A stretch of DNA of 64,000 nucleotides from Eubacteriales bacterium (GCA_045577415.1 JAZNII010000094.1:1434-65433); one strand, 5' to 3'; positions 8,924 through 49,077 are shown, counted from the first letter of the stretch. The notes: a model not told the origin generated them from the sequence alone. Translations and numbers: made by a program.

Positions 8924-9078
8924 ATCCGACTCCTTTCGTTAGATTTTAGATTTCTTCCGAAAAACAAACATCCACATTATATTATAACTCATTTTGAGAA
9001 TTTTTTCAAGTCCAAAATCATAATTATTATTTAATTTTGAAAGAAAATTTCATCAAAGACAAAAATCCCTGCGTTTGC

Positions 9079-9107
9079 TTGACAACAAAATGACCTCATG
9101 GTATAAT
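9079..9107 (+). promoter_or_regulatory. Consensus sigma-A promoter TTGACA-17nt-TATAAT
   Basis: TTGACA at 9079-9084, exactly 17 nt of spacer, TATAAT at 9102-9107. It points into a plus-strand open frame. Confidence 0.6.
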
Positions 9108-9450
9108 TAAACATATCTTTGACCGTGATTGGGAGGGCGAGGTAACGAGAGTTGATACTGTAATCGATAGCGAACCCATCACCTTTTCCGTTGCTGTCGA
9201 TCGCCGTCCGCCTAAAAAGATACCCTATACTGTTGTAACCGTACTTAAAGATAACGGAAAAACCGTAAAATTGAAGATACAATCCCGAAAGATGGCACCG
9301 TTGCTTTTTGAAATCGGAGATAGAATAAAGCATCATAAGGGAGCTAAATATCCGATCGTTTTGACGTCCAAAAAGCACGTCTACATCTGCCCGATATGCG
9401 GCGGTTGGTTCAAAGAGAGAAAATGCCTCAATTGTAGGGTGAATTTTTAA
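9094..9450 (+). CDS. Candidate zinc-ribbon protein. The frame is open for 118 codons, but the first canonical starts are TTG 9271 (59 aa) and ATG 9292 (52 aa), so this may be a 5'-decayed gene.
   Basis: Frame-1 translation looks protein-like: ...DWEGEVTRVDTVIDSEPITFSVAVDRRPPKKIPYTVVTVLKDNGKTVKLKIQSRKMAPLLFEIGDRIKHHKGAKYPIVLTSKKHVYICPICGGWFKERKCLNCRVNF. It ends in CxxC-x8-CxxC and is bracketed by a consensus promoter and a hairpin. Confidence 0.35.
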   Translation, partial: PHGIIKHIFDRDWEGEVTRVDTVIDSEPITFSVAVDRRPPKKIPYTVVTVLKDNGKTVKLKIQSRKMAPLLFEIGDRIKHHKGAKYPIVLTSKKHVYICPICGGWFKERKCLNCRVNF

Positions 9451-9460
9451 TTCTTCAAGC

Positions 9461-9500
9461 AAAATTGCAACGCTAAATTATAATTTGGTGTTGCAATTTT
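9461..9500 (+). terminator. Hairpin downstream of the zinc-ribbon ORF
   Basis: Perfect 11-bp inverted repeat AAAATTGCAAC...GTTGCAATTTT with an 18-nt loop. The stem ends in a T-run. Confidence 0.45.
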
Positions 9501-27654: not shown

Positions 27655-27689
27655 ATACGGGAATCAGTGTTACTGATTCCCGTATTTTA
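27655..27689. terminator. Bidirectional intrinsic terminator
   Basis: Hairpin ATACGGGAATCAG-tgtta-CTGATTCCCGTAT followed by TTTT. It overlaps the last codons of the convergent 158-aa ORF. Confidence 0.7.
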
Positions 27690-28146
27690 TACAACCAAGC
27701 TCATCTAAAATCTTGTCAAGCTCTTTGTCGCTGTTTACCTTTATTCCGATTGAGAGATCCTGTCTGTCGGAGGCGGGTAGTGAAGCAATAACGATGCTTT
27801 TCTCGTCAACAAGTAAGTTTTCCTCGTTATATATTCCTACCATGCCGTTATGATCCTTAACAGTATAGTGTGTTTCGATCTTATTGTCTTGCGGTTGGGC
27901 ATCGGATTGATTAATTCCCATATTCGAGCCATCTGCATCGCAAATAGACGCGTTTTGAGCCTTCAACTGTCTTGTTAACGAGTTTATAACGGTACGAAGA
28001 TCAAATATTCTGTTTTTGAGATCGTTTATGCCTGATCTCATTTTATTATACGATTCTTTAGCTTTATAATTTGAATAGGCGCTAAGGAGCGATGCTGAAA
28101 GCAACGCAGTCGCAGTAGCAAACCGAGCCATTTTTACAAGTTTCAT
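27670..28146 (-). CDS. Hypothetical secreted or membrane-anchored protein (C-terminal BofC_C-like beta domain is possible)
   Basis: N-terminal signal/anchor MARFATATALLSASLLSAY, a coiled segment, then YTVKDHNGMVGIY...SLPASDRQDLSIGIKV. AGAGGT RBS. Confidence 0.5.
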   Translation of the reverse strand: MKLVKMARFATATALLSASLLSAYSNYKAKESYNKMRSGINDLKNRIFDLRTVINSLTRQLKAQNASICDADGSNMGINQSDAQPQDNKIETHYTVKDHNGMVGIYNEENLLVDEKSIVIASLPASDRQDLSIGIKVNSDKELDKILDELGCIKYGNQ

Positions 28147-30929: not shown

Positions 30930-30967
30930 CTATTTTAGTTATTAATACCTTTTTGGAGGAAAGTTTG

Positions 30968-31453
30968 ATGAAGGCTTTTAGAATTTTGGCAGTAGTTCTC
31001 GTTTGCGTTATGCTGAGTTGCTCGTTCATCGCCTGTGACGAGGCGGATCTTAGTGCAATCGTATTGCCCGAGAGAGACTTTTATGATATGAAGGTTTCGT
31101 TCCAGGTCGCAAATGATATGGGTGAAATCATTATTGATGCCGAAGATTATAACTATAAGGGACATGAGACTCCCACGATCCTCAATATTATTAGTGACTA
31201 TCTCGCAATTGAGGTTAATATGAAGTGTGTTATACAGGATAACACCTTGGTTCAGATCGGAACTGCAGCATCTTGCAAGGCAAGCATTGATAAAGGTGAC
31301 TATTGGGCGTTTGCCGAGGGCATAGGTCACAACGTTGGTGCTTTGATTGAGGACGATAAGCTTCAGAACAAGACCTTTGTAAACGACCAGAGAATGAGCG
31401 ACTATATCGTCGAAGACGGCGGCGCTTTCACTATTGTTCTCATAAGAGGTTGA
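30968..31453 (+). CDS. Lipoprotein, DUF4430-like (tentative)
   Basis: GGAGG RBS. Signal peptide with lipobox (MKAFRILAVVLVCVMLSCSFIAC). The GDYWAFAEG...YIVEDGGAFTIVL pattern resembles the transcobalamin-like DUF4430 fold. Confidence 0.6.
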   Translation: MKAFRILAVVLVCVMLSCSFIACDEADLSAIVLPERDFYDMKVSFQVANDMGEIIIDAEDYNYKGHETPTILNIISDYLAIEVNMKCVIQDNTLVQIGTAASCKASIDKGDYWAFAEGIGHNVGALIEDDKLQNKTFVNDQRMSDYIVEDGGAFTIVLIRG

Positions 31454-32177: not shown

Positions 32178-32600
32178 TTATTTAAGATCTGCTTTGACCT
32201 TTTCAACCCAAGCAAGGATAGCGGTCTTTTCTTCTTCGGATACTTTGGAGTCAAAGAGACCGATCTTGATCTTCATTACGTCGTCAATAACATTGGTGCC
32301 TGCCTCACGGAGCAGCTCCTTGGTCTGTTCTACGCACTCGTCGTCACCTGCGGCGAGGATAGCGACGTTCTGCGCTCTTGCCTTGGTAAGCTCTCTTACA
32401 TAAAGTCTGTAATCGTCGGGAAGCTTTCCCTTAACGTTTGTAGCCAGAATTACTATTCTTTCTCTGTCGCAGGGATATGCGGAAGGGATACGGTCAACTG
32501 CGTTTACGCTGAGGTCGTATTCAGTCTTGATCATATTTCCGATAGCTGTAAGCTTTTTCTTGCTCTCAGGGTAACAGAGAACTCTCATTTTGATTGCCAT
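32178..32600 (-). CDS. Hypothetical protein, alpha/beta (flavodoxin-like layout but no FMN phosphate loop)
   Basis: GGAGG RBS 8 nt upstream and a terminator downstream. Alternating beta/alpha pattern. No family motif recognised. Confidence 0.45.
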   Translation of the reverse strand: MAIKMRVLCYPESKKKLTAIGNMIKTEYDLSVNAVDRIPSAYPCDRERIVILATNVKGKLPDDYRLYVRELTKARAQNVAILAAGDDECVEQTKELLREAGTNVIDDVMKIKIGLFDSKVSEEEKTAILAWVEKVKADLK

Positions 32601-35352: not shown

Positions 35353-38229
35353 TTATTTATTTTTGTTTCTGACGATTTGAATGATCTCAACTGCAACGGG
35401 GATCAAGCTTGCGATCATCAACGCGTTAATAACAGACGTAAGGTGCGATCTGATTGTCACCAGCAGATCAAGCTCGAATGAGCCTTGAGCAACGAATACG
35501 GTCAAGGCACAAGCAAGCAATAAGCCAAAGACAATAGTTGCAATATTGATAAGCTTATTGATTTTGATTTGACGTGTCATTTTAGAGCTTGATGAGATAG
35601 CGTCAGCAAGGCTTGTGGGATCTGCGGAGGACACCACACATCCGTCGCACATGTCAAGGCACTCAACAGACTCATAGCGATCAGGCTTGATGACGTTTAT
35701 GCTTGATATTGAGCGTCCTTTGTTCTGCTCATAGTAGAGATCGTTGATCTGCGGCTCATAGGTCTGAACGCGAACCTTGATTCCGGATTTGTGTAGCGAG
35801 TCAGACATTTTTAAGAATTTAGGTTTGATTCGGCTGTTGATGATGAATCCTAATTTAGGGATGCCGTCAAACGCCATGAAAATCACCGATCTGTCAGAAC
35901 CTTTGGTTGCCGTGGAGAGATTAGTGTCGGTCTTGACCTTGATATTATGTGATTGCATATATTGCTTGTCTCCAAGTAATATATTGATGGACGAATCAAA
36001 ATAGATGTCAATACCGTTATCGGTTATCTGGTTAATTACGATGTCGTGCGAGCCGTCGCCGTCAGCTTTGATGTATTTAGCACCAATCATTGCGAGAGGA
36101 CCGCCCAAGGCATTAAATATCTCGTAAGCTATTTTAAGGGATTCGATTGTGTCAGATCTGCCACTTGGGTGTATTTCAGTATACCCGGTTATTTCCAAAG
36201 AGTCACTGTCGCGGAAGATCAAGGTGGTCGCCTTTGACATTTCTTCGGGTGCCAAATTGCCAATATACGCAGTGTTTTTGTCAACCATGCAGCAGGATAG
36301 GACGTAATGTATCAGGGGCGAAGAGAACAAGCAGGATATCGGGATGCTGAAAAGCAGAGTCAGCATAGCCAATGAAAGTCCCAGCATCAAGCTTTTGGTT
36401 ATAAAAAAGACCGATATTCCGACCATGATCGAAACTATAGGCGCTATACCTATAAGGTACATTGGTTTTATAACGAGATTTTCATTTTGCGATGTTTTTC
36501 TGAAATATCCGCTGATAAGCTTCGTTTGACGAATTGTGAATTCATGCTCGGAATCGTTGTTTATTGCTCCTTGCTTTTCTGCGGTATAAAGAGTTTTAGA
36601 GGATGCTATGATATTAAAGACTTTGCGTTCCTTTATACAGTTCAACAAGTCGGATACTAAGGATAACACCGCATATATCGAAACGCAAAAGCCGAAAAGC
36701 ATGAGGTCGTCGGGATTTATTGCTTCCGAACAAATGGTGAATCCCAAAAGTGAAAAAACAGCATACAGAACGTATGTGGCAGCCACAAAAACAAATAGGG
36801 TATTGGGGCTTGTTTCCAATTTCATCAGCTTATTGAATCCGGAAATCAGCTTTTTATAAAGAATTGCTACTATTGCTACAATAAGAGAAAATTCCATCAA
36901 CAGAAAAGCCGGGAAGCTGGTTGCTTTATCGGAAAAGAATTCAAACGAGAATGTCAGGTAAAGTATTAATAAAGAAATTGTTGATACAACTGACAGAAGA
37001 ATTACAAGATTTCTGTTGTTGATCTTATATTTTTCTTGAATTTCGGGTATCTGTTTTCTATTTGTCAGCTCCTTGCCGCAAAAGCCAAATACTTTTCTGG
37101 TAGAGTCGGGAGTGAAGTATTCGTCTGCCTCCAACAATACCTGCTGAGTCTTTTTATCTCCTACCGTTGACCTTATTTCATTGTCGTAACCGAATTTTAA
37201 CAAAAGAGAAATATCGTTAGAATCGAATGCATCCTCGTTGGCTTTCTGTTTGGTCTTTGACGCCTTGTCAGCTGCTTGGCTATTTTGCTGTATATTGTGT
37301 ACGGCGATTAATTCTGCATTAGTACCTAGTGTAGGAAGTGTTTCTTGTAACGGGTCGGATGTATATTCTGAAGGAGACAGAATGATACGAGGGAGGGAAG
37401 AAGCTTCAATCTTATTCTCCGCATCGCTTGATGTTTCAGTGTTTTCCTCGTATATTGTATATTCTTCGTCTTCGACCGCAAAAGCTGCATCAGGTTCATC
37501 ATTTGACGAATCGACAGCAATATTGATTTCGTCAATATCGTCAATATCGTCAATATCGTCAACGTCTTCATAATCGTCCAAAACGACATCTTCATCGGCG
37601 TTGATAGAGTGTATGGATTCATCATCCAAGCCGTTATACGATTCCGTTGCAACGATTTCTTTTTCAACTTCTTTAATGCTTTGGGGTTCTTCGACCTCCA
37701 AAGACGCATCATCTGTTTCGGGTGATGCATCGATAATGCTTTCTATGGCATTGCCGCTTTCCTCGGGCTTGCTTTGAGCAGTCTTCCCTGAAAACATTAT
37801 GCTCAATACATTATCCACCGCTACTTTGTCGTCATTTTCCGGTTGAGAAGAATTTTGTTTGTCAAGCTCGTTTTCATCGGGATTTTCCGATTCTGTTATT
37901 TCAACAGATTCTGTATCGTTAACTGTCAAATCATCCTGTTCCGATGCTTCTGTAATTGCTTCGACATCTTTTTCGGAGCTGCAAGGCGTATCGATAGCGT
38001 CTTCGGATTGTAAGATGTTTTCTGAATCAATTTCAATAGAGTTATCATCTTTATTGGATGCGAACAGCTTGCCCAAGATTTCGTTAAGCTCTGTATCTTC
38101 TTCGCTCTCAGGGGATTCAAGCAAATCATCTTCCAGCATATTATCTAATGAATCTGATCCGTAAGATTTTTTTAGCTGTTCCAATATTACGTCAAGCTCG
38201 TTTTTTCCTTTTTTGCTTTGCTTGGACAC
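35353..38229 (-). CDS. Large membrane protein: acidic disordered N-terminus plus a degenerate P1B-type ATPase-like body (catalytic motifs lost)
   Basis: GGAGG RBS plus GTG. TM bundle. FRDSDSLEITG aligns where xFDKTGTLTxG is expected. FMAFDGIPKLGFIINSRIKPK...GIKVRVQTYEP stands in for the ...D.IKP...GI.V.MLTGD pattern. MCDGCVVSS replaces VGDGINDAP. Confidence 0.6.
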   Translation of the reverse strand: MSKQSKKGKNELDVILEQLKKSYGSDSLDNMLEDDLLESPESEEDTELNEILGKLFASNKDDNSIEIDSENILQSEDAIDTPCSSEKDVEAITEASEQDDLTVNDTESVEITESENPDENELDKQNSSQPENDDKVAVDNVLSIMFSGKTAQSKPEESGNAIESIIDASPETDDASLEVEEPQSIKEVEKEIVATESYNGLDDESIHSINADEDVVLDDYEDVDDIDDIDDIDEINIAVDSSNDEPDAAFAVEDEEYTIYEENTETSSDAENKIEASSLPRIILSPSEYTSDPLQETLPTLGTNAELIAVHNIQQNSQAADKASKTKQKANEDAFDSNDISLLLKFGYDNEIRSTVGDKKTQQVLLEADEYFTPDSTRKVFGFCGKELTNRKQIPEIQEKYKINNRNLVILLSVVSTISLLILYLTFSFEFFSDKATSFPAFLLMEFSLIVAIVAILYKKLISGFNKLMKLETSPNTLFVFVAATYVLYAVFSLLGFTICSEAINPDDLMLFGFCVSIYAVLSLVSDLLNCIKERKVFNIIASSKTLYTAEKQGAINNDSEHEFTIRQTKLISGYFRKTSQNENLVIKPMYLIGIAPIVSIMVGISVFFITKSLMLGLSLAMLTLLFSIPISCLFSSPLIHYVLSCCMVDKNTAYIGNLAPEEMSKATTLIFRDSDSLEITGYTEIHPSGRSDTIESLKIAYEIFNALGGPLAMIGAKYIKADGDGSHDIVINQITDNGIDIYFDSSINILLGDKQYMQSHNIKVKTDTNLSTATKGSDRSVIFMAFDGIPKLGFIINSRIKPKFLKMSDSLHKSGIKVRVQTYEPQINDLYYEQNKGRSISSINVIKPDRYESVECLDMCDGCVVSSADPTSLADAISSSSKMTRQIKINKLINIATIVFGLLLACALTVFVAQGSFELDLLVTIRSHLTSVINALMIASLIPVAVEIIQIVRNKNK
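37531..37566. repeat. 9-bp tandem repeat (GTCAATATC x3 plus GTCAACGTC) encoding DDIDDIDDIDEI
   Basis: Read directly from the sequence. It lies in frame within the acidic N-terminal region of the 958-aa ORF. Confidence 0.9.
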
Positions 38230-39704: not shown

Positions 39705-40490
39705 ATGAGAAACAAAATAACACTTTCATCGATATTATTAGTTGTATTATCAATGCTTTTCGCAATTCCAACAAATGCAGCTAACAGCGCTGAATATAAT
39801 TGGTATTGCGTACACAGAAAGGATCATTTGCAACCGTCCGCAGATCCTCAATTTGAGTTTATTGAAAACCTTGACGGTTACTATATTGACAAGCAAAACG
39901 GAGACGATTGTGAGGACAAGGTAATTTATCTCACCTTTGATGCGGGATATGAGAACGGCAATATAGAGAAAACTCTGGATATATTAAAAAGTCAAAACGT
40001 ATCGGGCGCATTTTTTATTTTAGGCAATCTTATTAAGTCTAATCCCGAAATCGTTACCCGTATGTTTGAAGAAGGACATCTGGTTTGTAATCATACCTAT
40101 TCTCACAAGTCTATGATCAACAAGACGGCAGAAGAATTTAAAAACGAGTTAGTTTTGCTTGAAAATGCTTGCCGCGATAAAATTGGATATAATATTGCAA
40201 AGTATTACCGCCCCCCTGAAGGAAAATTTGATGAAGCGTCTTTAAGCTATGCCAGGTCTATGGGATACAAAACGGTATTTTGGAGCTTTGCTTATGCTGA
40301 TTGGGATAACAACAAGCAAATGACTCCCGAAAAAGCTAAAGCGAAAATACTTGATAATATTCATAACGGCGAGGTAATGCTGCTCCATCCCACGTCATCA
40401 ACAAACGCTCAAATACTTGAGGAGGTCATAATAACTCTCAAGTCACAAGGATATCGCTTCGGCACGTTAGACGAGCTTTGCGAACGGTAA
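39705..40490 (+). CDS. pdaA: Delta-lactam-biosynthetic de-N-acetylase (PdaA-like polysaccharide deacetylase)
   Basis: VIYLTFDAGYENGNIEKTLDILK..VSGAFFILG..., EGHLVCNHTYSH, YYRPPEG and LLHP follow the PdaA signature. Signal peptide present. Confidence 0.85.
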   Translation: MRNKITLSSILLVVLSMLFAIPTNAANSAEYNWYCVHRKDHLQPSADPQFEFIENLDGYYIDKQNGDDCEDKVIYLTFDAGYENGNIEKTLDILKSQNVSGAFFILGNLIKSNPEIVTRMFEEGHLVCNHTYSHKSMINKTAEEFKNELVLLENACRDKIGYNIAKYYRPPEGKFDEASLSYARSMGYKTVFWSFAYADWDNNKQMTPEKAKAKILDNIHNGEVMLLHPTSSTNAQILEEVIITLKSQGYRFGTLDELCER

Positions 40491-40495
40491 TAAAT

Positions 40496-41209
40496 ATGTT
40501 TAAAACAGTAAGACTCGTGTCTTTTGTATTGATTATTGTCGTAGTAATAAATATTTTATGCACCGTAAACGTATTGGGTTCTTCACAAAATTGCGTTTCT
40601 GACAACGATGTAGATATATACCGTAAAAAAGACAATGAATTTATGAAGATAGCCCTTACCTTTGACGACGGTCCTCACCCACGATACACTCCTCAGATAC
40701 TGGACATTCTGGACAAATACGGGATCAAAGCGACTTTTTTTGCAATAGGTATCAACGCAGACCGCTATCCCGACGCAATGGAAATGGTCATAAGCAGAGG
40801 ACACGAGATAGGGAATCATACCTATACGCATCCCCACGTCGACCGATTGGATTCGATAACTCTTTATAGCGAGGTGGAAAAATGCGAATCTGCTCTGTAT
40901 AGCCATACCGATTGTAAAACAAAGCTGTTCAGACCGCCCGAAGGCATGATAGACGGCTATGTAAAGAGCGTTATAAAGCAGCTTGACTATAAGGTTATCC
41001 TTTGGGATATAGACACTATGGATTGGGCGCATACTCCGCCCGAGAAGATTGCGCGGAACGTTATCGACCGTGTATCCTCGGGAGATATAATTCTCATGCA
41101 CGACTATATTTCTTATAACAGTCCAACACCAGAGGCGCTAGAGCTTTTCATACCCGTTTTGCTTGAAAAGGGATATAAATTCGTAGTGATAAGCGAGCTT
41201 ATCTCGTAA
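40496..41209 (+). CDS. Polysaccharide deacetylase family protein (NodB domain)
   Basis: ALTFDDGPHP; ATFFAIG; GHEIGNHTYTH; LFRPPEG; ILMHD. I prefer the ATG at 40496 over the TTG at 40478. Confidence 0.88.
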   Translation: MFKTVRLVSFVLIIVVVINILCTVNVLGSSQNCVSDNDVDIYRKKDNEFMKIALTFDDGPHPRYTPQILDILDKYGIKATFFAIGINADRYPDAMEMVISRGHEIGNHTYTHPHVDRLDSITLYSEVEKCESALYSHTDCKTKLFRPPEGMIDGYVKSVIKQLDYKVILWDIDTMDWAHTPPEKIARNVIDRVSSGDIILMHDYISYNSPTPEALELFIPVLLEKGYKFVVISELIS

Positions 41210-44077: not shown

Positions 44078-44344
44078 ATGATGTATCTGGCATCCGGCAA
44101 GGAACGTTGCGTAATATTGGGACTATATATAGTAGAAAATAATGCAACGGTACGAGCTACCGCAACAAGATTTGGGATAAGCAAAAGTACCGTACATAAG
44201 GATGTCACACAGGTTTTGAAGAATACTAATAAGTCGTTATATCTGGACGTTAAAAGCGTTCTTGCCAAAAACAAAGAAGAACGCCACCTGCGCGGCGGTG
44301 AGGCAACAAAGAAGAAATATATGGAGGAGAAAAAGATAATATAG
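44078..44344 (+). CDS. spoIIID: Sporulation transcriptional regulator SpoIIID
   Basis: YIVENNATVRATATRFGISKSTVHKDV and ERHLRGGEATKKKY are near-identical to the SpoIIID signature. Confidence 0.92.
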   Translation: MMYLASGKERCVILGLYIVENNATVRATATRFGISKSTVHKDVTQVLKNTNKSLYLDVKSVLAKNKEERHLRGGEATKKKYMEEKKII

Positions 44345-45689: not shown

Positions 45690-45808
45690 AAAATAATGCG
45701 ATTTTTAGCTTTTTCTTATTTTTTTGAGGGTGTTAGTTAATGATAGAGGATGTTTTTTATTATAATCATAATAGAGATCTCCACTTTGGTTTAGCAAATA
45801 AACAAAAA

Positions 45809-45840
45809 CGGTTACGAGTTCCCTTTGGGGTTCGCAACCG
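45809..45840 (-). terminator. Terminator closing the Cys-rich gene
   Basis: On the minus strand: CGGTTGCGAA...CTCGTAACCG (imperfect) followed by TTTTTGTTTATTT. Confidence 0.6.
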
Positions 45841-45875
45841 TGATTTTTATTATTTGAGATTATTCAAAGTAATCG

Positions 45876-46712
45876 TCAGCAGCCGCATTTGCCGCCCTTA
45901 TCTCCGTGAATATGCGGAGCTTGGGTAGATGCGCATGAGAACTCCGAGATCGGGAAAGCCATAGAGCGGAATACGCTGCAGGGATCGTCATTGGATGGTG
46001 ATACGCATTCCTTATCGGGTATTACATATTCGGTAGCTGAAATTATAAACTGACCGGGACGCACGATTCTCACTATCGAGAAGATTCCTAAGGATACCGC
46101 AAGGTATCTTCTGTCATCGTCTTCATCATAATAAAGGTTTCCGTTCATGGTGTTTACAACTGTTTCGGGAATGTCGTGAGCGCAGCAGCAACAGCAGCAA
46201 CAATCGTTGATGCTCTCAAGGACGTTAACCCCGAGTACGATAGGCTCTGCCACCTCTACTACTGCCGTGGGTACGTTGTTTTCCTTGCAGCAAGGCTCAA
46301 CCCGTGAGCAGAAATCCGAAAAATCTCCGCCGCCGCGGAAGGTGCTTACGTTACAGTCACCGCCGTAAAGAATTACCTTTTTGTCGAGAACGGCGACGCC
46401 CTCAAATTCCTGGGAACGACCGTTTCCGATGCAACCCTCAAATACCAGCTTAACGTAGAAACGAATATTAACGGTGTAAAAGCCTCTGTTGAACTGAACG
46501 GGATCGAGGCTTATATGGGTCTGAGCGATGCAAGCGCTCTTAACTCTGACAGTACCGGTATGATCAATGATCTCCTTGCCGAAATCGGTCAGAAAAACCC
46601 TTGCGTTTTCAAAACAATCGCGGTCTCTGCAAGAGTCAAGTATTCTGTTAGTCTCTATACAAACAGTTTCCTTGCCAATGCCGGGGCCGCATGAAAATCT
46701 GTTATCTTGCAT
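45876..46712 (-). CDS. Cysteine-rich protein of unknown family (278 aa, 22 Cys, CCCCCCC run)
   Basis: The ATG at 46712 has a GGGGGA RBS. No TM segment or signal peptide is evident. Cys clusters occur at the N-terminus, the middle (46182-46202) and the C-terminus (KCGC). Confidence 0.65.
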   Translation of the reverse strand: MQDNRFSCGPGIGKETVCIETNRILDSCRDRDCFENARVFLTDFGKEIIDHTGTVRVKSACIAQTHISLDPVQFNRGFYTVNIRFYVKLVFEGCIGNGRSQEFEGVAVLDKKVILYGGDCNVSTFRGGGDFSDFCSRVEPCCKENNVPTAVVEVAEPIVLGVNVLESINDCCCCCCCAHDIPETVVNTMNGNLYYDEDDDRRYLAVSLGIFSIVRIVRPGQFIISATEYVIPDKECVSPSNDDPCSVFRSMAFPISEFSCASTQAPHIHGDKGGKCGC

Positions 46713-46811
46713 AATATTTCCCCCTATATGTTTTGTCAGAAAGCCGTGGAACTGCTTTCTCAATATCATTCTATGTCGAATTTGGGGATATGTTACGCTA
46801 TTTTGGAGAAC

Positions 46812-46846
46812 AAAAAATCTCGAAGAAATTTCTCCGAGATTTTTTA
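46812..46846. terminator. Palindromic hairpin between GTPase gene 2 and the Cys-rich gene
   Basis: AAAAAATCTCGAAG-aaattt-CTCCGAGATTTTTT, with one G-U pair. Confidence 0.6.
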
Positions 46847-46847
46847 A

Positions 46848-47798
46848 TTAATAGAAAGTTGCGACTTCCTTTTCGGGCTTGTCGGTGTATGCGCTGCTTT
46901 CGGCGTAAATAACGGGGCCGGGTCTGCCGTAGAGCTTGTTCTTCTCTATCTTGATCTTGCCCTGAACGTTTATCCAATCGTAATTTTTATAAGCGACGTT
47001 TGACTTGAATTTGCATACGAGACCGCTATATGCAATATCCTCAACACAACAGGTCATAACGTGTCTGCCGATAACGATAGCGTCCTTGCCAAGCTTCATA
47101 TCTCTTGCTACTACGCCCTTGAATTTGACGGTCTTACCGTCGTATTTCTCCATTTCCTCGCTGAGGTCTCTGTACCAGATCGCGTAGTCGTCGTCCTCGA
47201 TAATGATAACATCTGCCTCAATGTCAAAAGGCAGAGGATCCTCGATCTCATCGTATTCAACGTGACCGTCGGGATAATCGTAGGTTATAGTCGCTCTGCG
47301 GGAAATGCCGCGGACTATCTTGTGAACCTCATCCTTGTCGATATTGTCGGGCGTGCGGTTGAGGACTATCATTTCGCAGGACATAAGCTTATCTACCATA
47401 AGGCTTCTCATGTTCTGATTGTAAGCGAAAAACGTGTTTGCGTCGGCAAACATCATATTCTGGAAGATAAACCAATCAGCAGGCAGATTATTATAAAGCG
47501 TTGCCAACTGCCACATACCGTTGTATTCGATAATAACGCGGTCGATCTTGTGACCCTCGCGGCAGGATTCAAGCTTTTCTGCGGTAACGTCAACTTCGCT
47601 GTCAAGAGTTGCGAGGTAGACGTTCTTGCCGGGGAATTCGGTGACGTCAAGCTCCTCGATTCCCTCCTCGCAGAGGATGATAAGAGTCTTTTCGCCGGTG
47701 TTGAAGCGCTCGTCTGCCATAGACTCCTGAATTATATGTGTTTTACCGCCCTCAAGAAAGCCGGTAAAAAGATATACTGGAATAGTAGGTTGTGCCAT
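46848..47798 (-). CDS. G3E/COG0523-like GTPase paralogue lacking the CxCC motif, fused to a DUF1980 (YcgQ/COG3689)-like C-terminal domain
   Basis: Walker A TGFLEGGKTH; IEYNGM; VLNRTP (a degenerate NKxD). The C-terminal HVMTCCVEDIAYSGLVC resembles the DUF1980 xTCCxxDA motif. AAGGAAAGG RBS. Confidence 0.6.
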   Translation of the reverse strand: MAQPTIPVYLFTGFLEGGKTHIIQESMADERFNTGEKTLIILCEEGIEELDVTEFPGKNVYLATLDSEVDVTAEKLESCREGHKIDRVIIEYNGMWQLATLYNNLPADWFIFQNMMFADANTFFAYNQNMRSLMVDKLMSCEMIVLNRTPDNIDKDEVHKIVRGISRRATITYDYPDGHVEYDEIEDPLPFDIEADVIIIEDDDYAIWYRDLSEEMEKYDGKTVKFKGVVARDMKLGKDAIVIGRHVMTCCVEDIAYSGLVCKFKSNVAYKNYDWINVQGKIKIEKNKLYGRPGPVIYAESSAYTDKPEKEVATFY

Positions 47799-47823: not shown

Positions 47824-49008
47824 TTAAGCCAGTTCTACGCCGATAGCCTCGGATACGGCATTCTTATGGAGTTTAGAGCCGATAACGCAGAGACGTCCAA
47901 TGACACCTGCGCCGCCGTATCGTATGTCAGGCTCGCCGGGGATGTAGTCGAAGTGGATCCATCTGCCGTCGTCGGACTCGACGATTCCCTTTGCGCGTAG
48001 GATCATTCCGTATTTTTCGGTGTCGGTGAAGCTCTCAAGAGCGGCTTTGAGCTGATCAGCGTTGAACTTCTTGGTAGTCTCGGCGCCGTAGCTTACGAAC
48101 ACCTCGTCGGCGTGGTGATGGTGGTGGTCGTGGTCGTGGTGATGACCGCAAGAGCAGTTTCCATGCTCGTCATATTCATGATGATGCTCGTGGTCGTGAT
48201 CATGGTCGTGATCGTGGTGACAACACTCGTCATCGTGGTGATGATGTTCATGTTCATGCTCGTGATCACAGCAACAATCCTCATCGTGGTGATGATGGTG
48301 TTCATGCTCATGCTCGTGATGGCAGCAACAATCCTCATCATGATGATGCTCGTGATGCTCGTGATGATGCTCGTGTGCCGCCTCGGCAAGCTCGGTCATT
48401 TCTGCCTCAAGGGTAGACTTGCGCTCCATAGCTTCGAGAAGCTGTGCGCCGGTAAGCTGATCCCAAGGTGTGGAAACGATGACCGCGGTAGAGTTATGCT
48501 CCTTGAGAAGCGCTACGCAATCTGCGATCTTCTGCTCGGAAATATTGCCCGTATGGCTAAGCACGATACATCCTGCATTCTCCACCTGATCGTTGAAGAA
48601 CTCACCAAAGTTCTTCATGTGCATCTTACACTTGTTTGCGTCAACGATAGTGGTAAATCCGTTAAGCTCTGCCCCCTCGGTGTCTGCGTTCTTGACTGCT
48701 TTGATAACATCGGAGAGCTTGCCAACTCCGGAAGGCTCGATAAGTATGCGATCGGGAGTGTACTCGGAAATAACTTTTTTAAGAGCCTCTGCAAAGTCTC
48801 CTACAAGCGAGCAACAGATGCATCCCGAGTTCATTTCGTTGATCTTGATGCCTGCCTCGGCAAGAAATCCGCTATCAATGCCGATCTCGCCAAATTCGTT
48901 CTCGATAAGAACGATCTTTTCGCCGTGATAGGCTTCTTCTATAAGCTTTTTGATAAGAGTGGTCTTTCCCGCGCCGAGAAAACCCGAAAATATGTCAATT
49001 TTAGTCAT
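47824..49008 (-). CDS. CobW/COG0523-family metallochaperone GTPase with a His/Cys-rich insert
   Basis: SGFLGAGKTTLI, ENEFGEIGID, GCICCS, IEPSGV and a CobW_C-like end (ILRAKGIV...RWIHFD). I prefer the ATG at 49008 (AGAAAGG RBS) over the longer track call. Confidence 0.88.
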   Translation of the reverse strand: MTKIDIFSGFLGAGKTTLIKKLIEEAYHGEKIVLIENEFGEIGIDSGFLAEAGIKINEMNSGCICCSLVGDFAEALKKVISEYTPDRILIEPSGVGKLSDVIKAVKNADTEGAELNGFTTIVDANKCKMHMKNFGEFFNDQVENAGCIVLSHTGNISEQKIADCVALLKEHNSTAVIVSTPWDQLTGAQLLEAMERKSTLEAEMTELAEAAHEHHHEHHEHHHDEDCCCHHEHEHEHHHHHDEDCCCDHEHEHEHHHHDDECCHHDHDHDHDHEHHHEYDEHGNCSCGHHHDHDHHHHHADEVFVSYGAETTKKFNADQLKAALESFTDTEKYGMILRAKGIVESDDGRWIHFDYIPGEPDIRYGGAGVIGRLCVIGSKLHKNAVSEAIGVELA

Positions 49009-49048
49009 CTTATCGCCTTTCTGATTATAAATTAATAAACCCAAATGA

Positions 49049-49077
49049 ATTATACCCCCAAAACGGGTAAAAGTCAA
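49049..49077 (-). promoter_or_regulatory. Sigma-A promoter TTGACT-17nt-TATAAT for the COG0523 locus
   Basis: Read on the minus strand: -35 at 49072-49077 and -10 at 49049-49054. Confidence 0.65.

Follow-up and report, generated by a model that had tools for sequence, protein, structure and literature searches.

A cysteine-rich protein with a seven-cysteine run from an uncultured Eubacteriales bacterium: a candidate spore-envelope protein of the CsxA superfamily

A small protein encoded on the chromosome of a Eubacteriales bacterium carries seven cysteine residues in direct succession and poses the question of what such a dense thiol patch is for. The initial annotation, made from the sequence alone, offered two answers: a multinuclear thiolate metal site or dense disulfide cross-linking as in spore coats. 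The conservation of the gene, its distant homology, its promoter, and its neighborhood are considered here in turn, followed by the explanations that compete for them.

The gene and its family

The window, meaning the whole stretch of 64,000 nucleotides that was analyzed, is core Bacillota chromosome with polC, dnaE, a gyrA-like gene, prfA, murB, whiA, and gap, and it also carries the cluster pyrH-frr-uppS-cdsA-dxr-rseP-ispG. The gene for the mother-cell sporulation regulator SpoIIID (PF12116; E value of 1e-32) is located at 44078-44344 on the plus strand, 1.5 kb from the target gene, and indicates that the organism is an endospore former. The cysteine-rich open reading frame (ORF) runs on the minus strand, a detail left unstated in the initial annotation, from the ATG at 46712-46710 to the TGA stop codon at 45878-45876. 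Its features are as follows.

45876..46712, minus strand: coding sequence of the CsxA-like 278-aa protein, stop codon included (based on homologues and on hhalign and HMM matches to CsxA)
46719..46724, minus strand: Shine-Dalgarno element GGGGGA, 6 nt 5' of the ATG (read from the sequence)
46182..46202, minus strand: seven consecutive Cys codons, residues 171 to 177 (aligning with the CsxA loop DCGGGCNCGCTC)

A longer reading frame of 297 aa, beginning with an ATG at 46769, is also possible and is the one used in some database gene calls; N-terminally extended versions of 296 to 299 aa beginning at the upstream ATG include P0001, P0011, P0015, and P0017. Most homologues begin with MQDNRF or MPDNRF, matching the ATG at 46712, and a GGAGG/GGGGGA element occupies the Shine-Dalgarno position in 80 loci. 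The Shine-Dalgarno element, the homologue starts, and the placement of the upstream ATG within the predicted promoter indicate that the ATG at 46712 is the start, correcting the database gene calls.

Comparison with databases indicates that the ORF is a real and conserved gene. A database search yields more than 2,270 homologous proteins at an E value of ≤1e-3, all from metagenome-assembled genomes (MAGs) of Clostridia and all unnamed or labeled "hypothetical." When a profile is searched against 1.84 billion cluster representatives, 1,072 clusters at 50% identity match, and the wider family amounts to ∼3,700 sequence clusters at 90% identity. In a scan with one genome per species, relatives are found in at least 455 species-level genomes; the best 80 of these carriers are all uncultured gut or rumen MAGs, labeled Eubacteriales, Clostridia, Oscillospiraceae, or Lachnospiraceae. 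An alignment of 26 sequences with 60 to 87% identity contains 79 invariant columns, among them DSC-D-RDC, three Cys residues of the run, KEC, DPC, and the C-terminal C-G-C. A look-up of the exact window protein sequence finds no database record, and a cluster look-up of 10 distant family members finds none with a name.

The cysteine run and the relationship to CsxA

The protein contains 22 Cys residues in 278 aa (7.9%), at positions 8, 18, 28, 33, 61, 94, 120, 135, 141, 142, 171 to 177, 236, 245, 260, 276, and 278. This count and the seven-Cys run agree with the initial annotation, and the motifs quoted there (FSCGPG, VCIE, DSCRDRDC, PCC, and HIHGDKGGKCGC) are all present. By composition alone, ∼5e-6 C7 runs would be expected in the protein. 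The longest Cys run measures 3 to 9 residues, with a mode of 6, in 120 of 120 close database homologues and likewise 3 to 9 residues in all 80 species-level genome loci, so that a run is conserved among orthologues, a point that had been marked for checking. Directly after the run, the pattern x-x-D-[IV]-P-[ED] follows in 80 of 80 loci. Within D-CCCCCCC-AHD, the seven residues are encoded by TGT TGC TGC TGT TGC TGC TGC, and synonymous TGT/TGC differences inside the run separate the window from the near-identical loci L001 and L002. These changes indicate selection on the amino acid rather than a slippery DNA repeat and bear out the earlier argument that mixed codons speak against a slippage artifact. 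In distant family members (27 to 54% identity), the loop is still rich in Cys yet mostly not homopolymeric, which indicates that the run is a clade-specific elaboration of a Cys-rich loop and that its length is not fixed. Conservation reaches 90% or more for C28, C33, and C245 over the wider family, and the family alignments contain no conserved His alongside the run.

The window protein has no match among the curated protein families searched. Searches of Pfam, NCBIfam, and PHROGs give no match, the best candidate being a PHROG of unknown function with an E value of 0.17; the Pfam copy used lacks PF27077, the CsxA family, and gives no match for CsxA itself. Pfam also gives no match for 50 diverse family members. 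Searches of PDB sequences with the single sequence and with a profile return only chance matches, i.e., a hydrophobin (E value of 0.03) and a retinol-binding protein (E value of 0.06).

A likeness to CsxA (sequence from the supplement of PMC4942563) is nevertheless evident by eye in an N-terminal motif and a C-terminal block, and profile comparison extends it over both proteins. With hhalign, a family profile of 50 sequences (A2) matches CsxA with a probability of 97.8% and an E value of 1.1e-12, in an alignment of 217 columns that runs through both proteins. When 26 homologues of CsxA are combined into a profile (A3) and compared in its place, the probability rises to 99.0%, with an E value of 2.7e-18 over 219 columns. 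CsxC, which is equally rich in Cys and serves as a control for a composition artifact, reaches a probability of 0.3%. An HMM of CsxA homologues applied to 1,638 ORFs from the window and the other loci matches exactly the 81 family ORFs, without false matches, and the window protein scores an E value of 8e-9. Pairwise BLASTP between the window protein and CsxA is weak (E value of 6e-5 over 56 aa). The precomputed annotation PF27077, named "CsxA," is attached to 3 of the 120 top matches of the family profile and to none of 120 close homologues. On these comparisons, the window protein shows full-length homology and is assigned to a branch of the CsxA superfamily that is divergent and so far unannotated.

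CsxA of Clostridium sporogenes and group I Clostridium botulinum (UniProt G9F2G0, PF27077) comprises 299 aa with 25 Cys residues, compared to 278 aa and 22 Cys residues in the window protein, and the identity between the two is only ∼20 to 23%. The N-terminal motif C-I-x-x-x-[KR]-[IV]-x-D-x-C-x-x-[KR]-x-C aligns between the family profile and CsxA and reads VCIETNRILDSCRDRDC in the window protein and ICCIQVPKVFDQCLRKEC in CsxA. The aligned C-terminal block, [IV]-[ST]-L-G-x-F...Y-x-x-P-x-x-E-C...D-P-C...F...P, reads VSLGIFSIVRI...ATEYVIPDKEC..DPC..F..FP in the window protein and ITLGLFIIIKC...PAYGYCPVPEEC..DPC..F..LP in CsxA. A loop rich in Cys occupies the same place in the alignment of both proteins; in the window protein, a homopolymeric run takes the place of the C-x-C spacing of the CsxA loop. 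The C terminus differs as well, with a conserved GGKCGC in the window family compared to a long acidic tail in CsxA. In alignment A3 of the CsxA homologues P0319 to P0405 (columns ∼215 to 240), the loop sequence of CsxA is inserted in the sporogenes/botulinum group alone, and in the remaining homologues the loop is short and contains 1 to 3 Cys residues. Since the insertion is confined to that group, the same loop position appears to have been loaded with Cys independently in the two branches.

Structure prediction agrees with the earlier impression of a beta-rich, globular protein. An AlphaFold2 (AF2) model built on a deep alignment reaches a pLDDT of 80.8 and a pTM of 0.77 and is all-beta, with very long strands at residues 18 to 42, 55 to 71, 78 to 95, 99 to 116, and 202 to 223. 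The Cys run falls in a lower-confidence loop between the strand of residues 158 to 166 and the helix of residues 183 to 186. An earlier model, built on a shallow alignment, was of poor quality, with a pLDDT of 57, and its Foldseek matches to RAD52 and SecB (E value of >0.1) were discarded. Foldseek finds no match for the pLDDT-81 model in PDB or BFVD (best E value of 0.014; TM score of <0.2), which argues against a phage-capsid origin. Hydropathy analysis (Kyte-Doolittle) of the window protein reveals neither an N-terminal hydrophobic segment nor a convincing transmembrane helix. The maximum 19-residue mean of 1.59 lies on a predicted beta-strand, and the earlier statement that signal peptide and transmembrane helix are lacking holds.

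Promoter, transcription unit, and neighborhood

The region around the gene contains the following elements.

46764..46775, minus strand: -10 region CATAGAATGATA of a predicted mother-cell (σK/σE-type) sporulation promoter (conserved; sole match in the window)
46791..46796, minus strand: -35 region GTAACA, with AC 16 nt 5' of CATA (σK-like; AC is the σK discriminator)
46738..46760, minus strand: 5'-UTR stem-loop AGAAAGC-N9-GCTTTCT, directly 3' of the -10 region (dG, -8.5; z, -1.8)
46812..46846, minus strand: intrinsic terminator of the upstream CobW-like gene (dG, -18.2; z, -5.9; followed by a U-tract)
45804..45841, minus strand: intrinsic terminator of the target gene (dG, -18.8; z, -4.1; followed by a U-tract)

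Alignment of 79 upstream regions on the -10 element reveals the pattern [GT]T.[AT]CA - N15/16 - CATAnnATGnTA in 78 of them, 49 to 92 nt before the ATG. In the window, the promoter reads GTAACA-N-CATAGAATGATA (46796-46764), or AC-N16-CATAGAATG, and neither test pattern has another match on the two strands of the 64-kb window (128 kb). In Clostridioides difficile, σE and σK promoters have a CATAnnAT-type -10 region in common, with ATA in the -35 region marking σE and AC marking σK (PMC3789822). The AC located 16 nt 5' of CATA in the window thus fits σK better than σE. The conserved promoter is consistent with recognition by the mother-cell sporulation sigma factors, σK more so than σE. Upstream of csxA in C. 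botulinum, CACAC-N15-17-CATACTATATATTGAGA resembles the CATAGAATGATATTGAGA of the window, and both genes have a σK-like promoter on their 5' side. The in-frame ATG at 46767-46769 (minus strand) sits within the conserved -10 box.

Folding of single sequences places a hairpin just after the -10 element in 76 of 76 loci, with a median dG of -8.1 and a median z of -2.1. The stems vary by lineage (AGAAAGC/GCTTTCT, GAGC/GCTC, GAGGGG/CCCTC, and AAAAAGC/GCTTTTT) and differ in length, as do the loops, and RNAalifold finds no consensus for these 5'-UTR hairpins. Enrichment over random windows is modest, with 26% of loci in the lowest 5%. Positioned where the mRNA is predicted to start, the stem-loop may act as a 5' stabilizer of the transcript. 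A search of the window against Rfam finds no family. In locus L081, the csxA promoter of C. botulinum/C. sporogenes (2920-2965) is σK-like, and the stretch ATATTGAGA after its -10 region is also present at the window gene; the hairpin that follows there is weak (dG, -3; z, -0.6).

Folding confirmed both flanking terminators, which a simple terminator scan had missed since their loops or bulges fall outside its rules. The gene is predicted to be monocistronic, bracketed by two strong intrinsic terminators, of which the one belonging to the CobW-like gene insulates the target from that gene. The neighboring genes for a short-chain dehydrogenase/reductase (SDR), two CobW-family proteins, and a dUTPase share synteny with the target in just the ∼20 closest of the 81 loci, and spoIIID keeps its synteny with the target in ∼10 loci. 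In the remaining loci, the target lies among unrelated housekeeping genes. The flanks of the 80 loci contain no conserved neighbor of any kind beyond local synteny, and a conserved operon was rejected on this ground together with the lack of paralogues in the flanks. Glycosyltransferase genes are likewise missing near the target in the flanks examined. The window has no collagen-like (BclA-type) ORF, and the flanks of the 80 loci contain a single ORF with G-X-X repeats (L049; 151 aa).

Directly upstream of the target, two genes for CobW/COG0523-family GTPases stand in tandem (47824-49077 and 46848-47798, both on the minus strand). The first contains an insert of ∼100 aa in which nearly all residues are His, Asp, Glu, or Cys (HEHHHEHHEHHHDEDCCCHHEHEHEHHHHHDEDCCCDHEHEH...), with two CCC and one CC; the second fuses a CobW N-domain to DUF1980_C. 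The two proteins probably form a pair of metal (Zn) chaperones. Elsewhere in the window, two slightly overlapping tandem polysaccharide deacetylase (PF01522) genes at 39705-40490 and 40478-41209 (plus strand) could, in a spore former, encode cortex enzymes of the PdaA/PdaB type. An ORF of 958 aa at 35353-38229 (minus strand) has no Pfam match at an E value of ≤1e-5. Smaller ORFs without a Pfam match are found at 27670-28146 (minus strand), 30953-31453 (plus strand), 32178-32600 (minus strand), and 9031-9462 (minus strand).

Proposed role and comparison with known spore-envelope proteins

CsxA forms the self-assembling, disulfide-cross-linked basal layer of the exosporium in C. sporogenes (PMC4942563, PMC7333573), and its assemblies, built from a protein with 25 Cys residues, come apart only on boiling in 2 M DTT (PMC7333573). 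In the model of a recent preprint, CsxA is an intertwined trimer rich in beta structure; the trimer fits the lattice seen by cryo-EM, and its unpaired "tripod-leg" Cys residues are proposed to cross-link one trimer to another (bioRxiv 10.64898/2026.09.03.749163). From the full-length homology to this protein, it is likely that the window gene encodes a mother-cell-made, self-assembling lattice protein of the spore envelope in which the poly-Cys loop acts as a disulfide cross-linking hub. The protein would be made late in the mother-cell cytoplasm, without a signal peptide, and would oligomerize in the manner of the modeled CsxA trimer. It would then tile into an outer layer of the spore envelope, either the exosporium or the outer coat. 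A surface loop with 3 to 9 consecutive Cys residues would create a very high local thiol density at the lattice contacts, and cooperative intermolecular disulfides formed from these thiols would lock the assembly, as has been proposed for CsxA with respect to its Cys-rich loop and its unpaired "tripod-leg" Cys. The five Cys residues common to both proteins (VC18, DSC28, DC33, KEC236, and DPC245) are probably core structural or inter-subunit residues, and the variable ones, including the run, are probably position-tolerant cross-linkers. The disulfide alternative of the initial annotation gains support from this homology, from the conserved mother-cell sporulation-type promoter, and from the SpoIIID-encoding genome.

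The other alternative assumes a metal-thiolate protein, in which the C7 run, flanking His and Cys residues, and the C-terminal KCGC would form a multinuclear cluster of the Zn, Cu, or Fe-S type, possibly served by the CobW (COG0523) metallochaperones. The Cys content of 7.9% with its dense thiol patch fits this idea, and the two CobW-family genes just upstream, one of them with the His/Cys-rich insert, probably encouraged it. It is very improbable all the same, as the initial proposal of such a site finds no positive support. A run that varies between 3 and 9 residues in orthologues and dissolves in distant members does not suit a fixed cluster geometry; this variability fits a principle of "more thiols, more cross-links" better than a geometrically defined metal site. 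The run is accompanied by no conserved His, the CobW genes form a separate transcription unit behind a strong terminator and are neighbors in only 20 of 81 loci, and searches with Pfam and NCBIfam, extended with Pfam to 50 family members, match no metallothionein or metal-binding family. The protein is, moreover, globular and beta-rich, and its homologue CsxA serves as a structural lattice component. Adventitious metal binding as a side property of the window protein may still occur.

A different objection accepts the family and assigns it another function, that of a component of the inner or outer coat, the crust, or a parasporal layer, or of a morphogenetic organizer like CotE or SipL, rather than a tile of the exosporium basal layer. 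In C. sporogenes, Cys-rich envelope proteins with a related modeled fold do build different layers, CsxA the exosporium and CsxC the parasporal crystals (bioRxiv 10.64898/2026.09.03.749163), and BclA-like nap genes are missing near the target. Such a role is rather unlikely, since the sequence homology is specific to CsxA and not to CsxC, and the morphogenetic members of the fold class, CotE and SipL, are poor in Cys (bioRxiv 10.64898/2026.09.03.749163), whereas the window protein is as rich in Cys as CsxA. Barely credible is a housekeeping or vegetative Cys-rich protein, e.g., a redox buffer, unrelated to sporulation and transcribed by σA. Read as a σ70 promoter, the upstream site (GTAACA-17-TAGAAT) is weak, with 9 of 12 consensus positions, and the neighboring genes are of the housekeeping type. 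The positions conserved across the 78 loci, i.e., the C and A of CATA, the ATG and TA that follow, and the C of the -35 region, are those of the mother-cell σE/σK consensus and not those that σA needs, and the homology is to an exosporium protein. Most likely, the window protein helps to build the spore shell of an uncultured gut bacterium and is not a new metal protein. A more far-reaching version, in which the poly-Cys loops meet at a lattice symmetry axis in groups of 3 or 6 (21 to 42 thiols) and form a redox-switchable multi-disulfide or metal-thiolate node controlling the permeability or mechanics of the spore shell, and in which a large share of the uncultured gut Clostridia draw their main outer-shell protein from this family, is quite unlikely.

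Descriptions of CsxA have so far been limited to Clostridium sensu stricto and its close relatives (87 database matches), and the present analysis links to it a much larger "hypothetical" family of uncultured gut and rumen Clostridia (∼3,700 clusters at 90% and ∼1,070 at 50% identity, in at least 455 species-level genomes). The curated models for CsxA appear to overlook the greater part of this superfamily. The family thus contains a concrete candidate for an outer spore-shell protein of commensal spore formers, whose spores mediate transmission from host to host; if the proposal is true, it concerns spore surfaces of uncultured gut Clostridia that are relevant to this transmission and have never yet been described. 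The loops with 3 to 9 Cys residues also form a natural length series for the "cooperative disulfide" model of spore-envelope assembly. As a kind of protein, nothing categorically new is proposed, as the CsxA type is known; the novelty indicated by the comparisons lies in a database-invisible branch extending well beyond Clostridium.

Beside the shared motifs, loop position, and promoter type, the window protein and CsxA agree in the absence of a signal peptide. Collagen-like and glycosyltransferase genes, which are frequent though not obligatory companions of csxA, are not neighbors of the window gene, and its carriers are uncultured Eubacteriales/Oscillospiraceae gut MAGs instead of Clostridium sensu stricto. 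The curated CsxA models also appear not to capture this branch, as its close homologues carry no precomputed PF27077 and the window protein has no NCBIfam match. The preprint assigns CsxA to the SPOCS/DUF3794 fold by means of AlphaFold3 and Foldseek (bioRxiv 10.64898/2026.09.03.749163) and places CsxC, CdeC, CotE, and SipL in the same fold, with the Cys-rich CsxC and CdeC proposed to form cross-linked arrays. At an E value of ≤1, PF12673 (SPOCS/DUF3794) matches none of 50 family members, and CsxA also lacks a match; CsxC itself matches DUF7852 and, weakly, SipL/SPOCS. Between CsxC and the window family, no sequence relationship is detectable at the profile level (probability of 0.3%). The CotY/CotZ/ExsY proteins of Bacillus spores are unrelated to the window protein in fold and sequence, and the window protein has no Pfam or NCBIfam match to their families. 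The comparison with them is one of analogy only, in that they follow the same strategy of Cys-rich, self-assembling, disulfide-stabilized two-dimensional lattices in the outer spore envelope.
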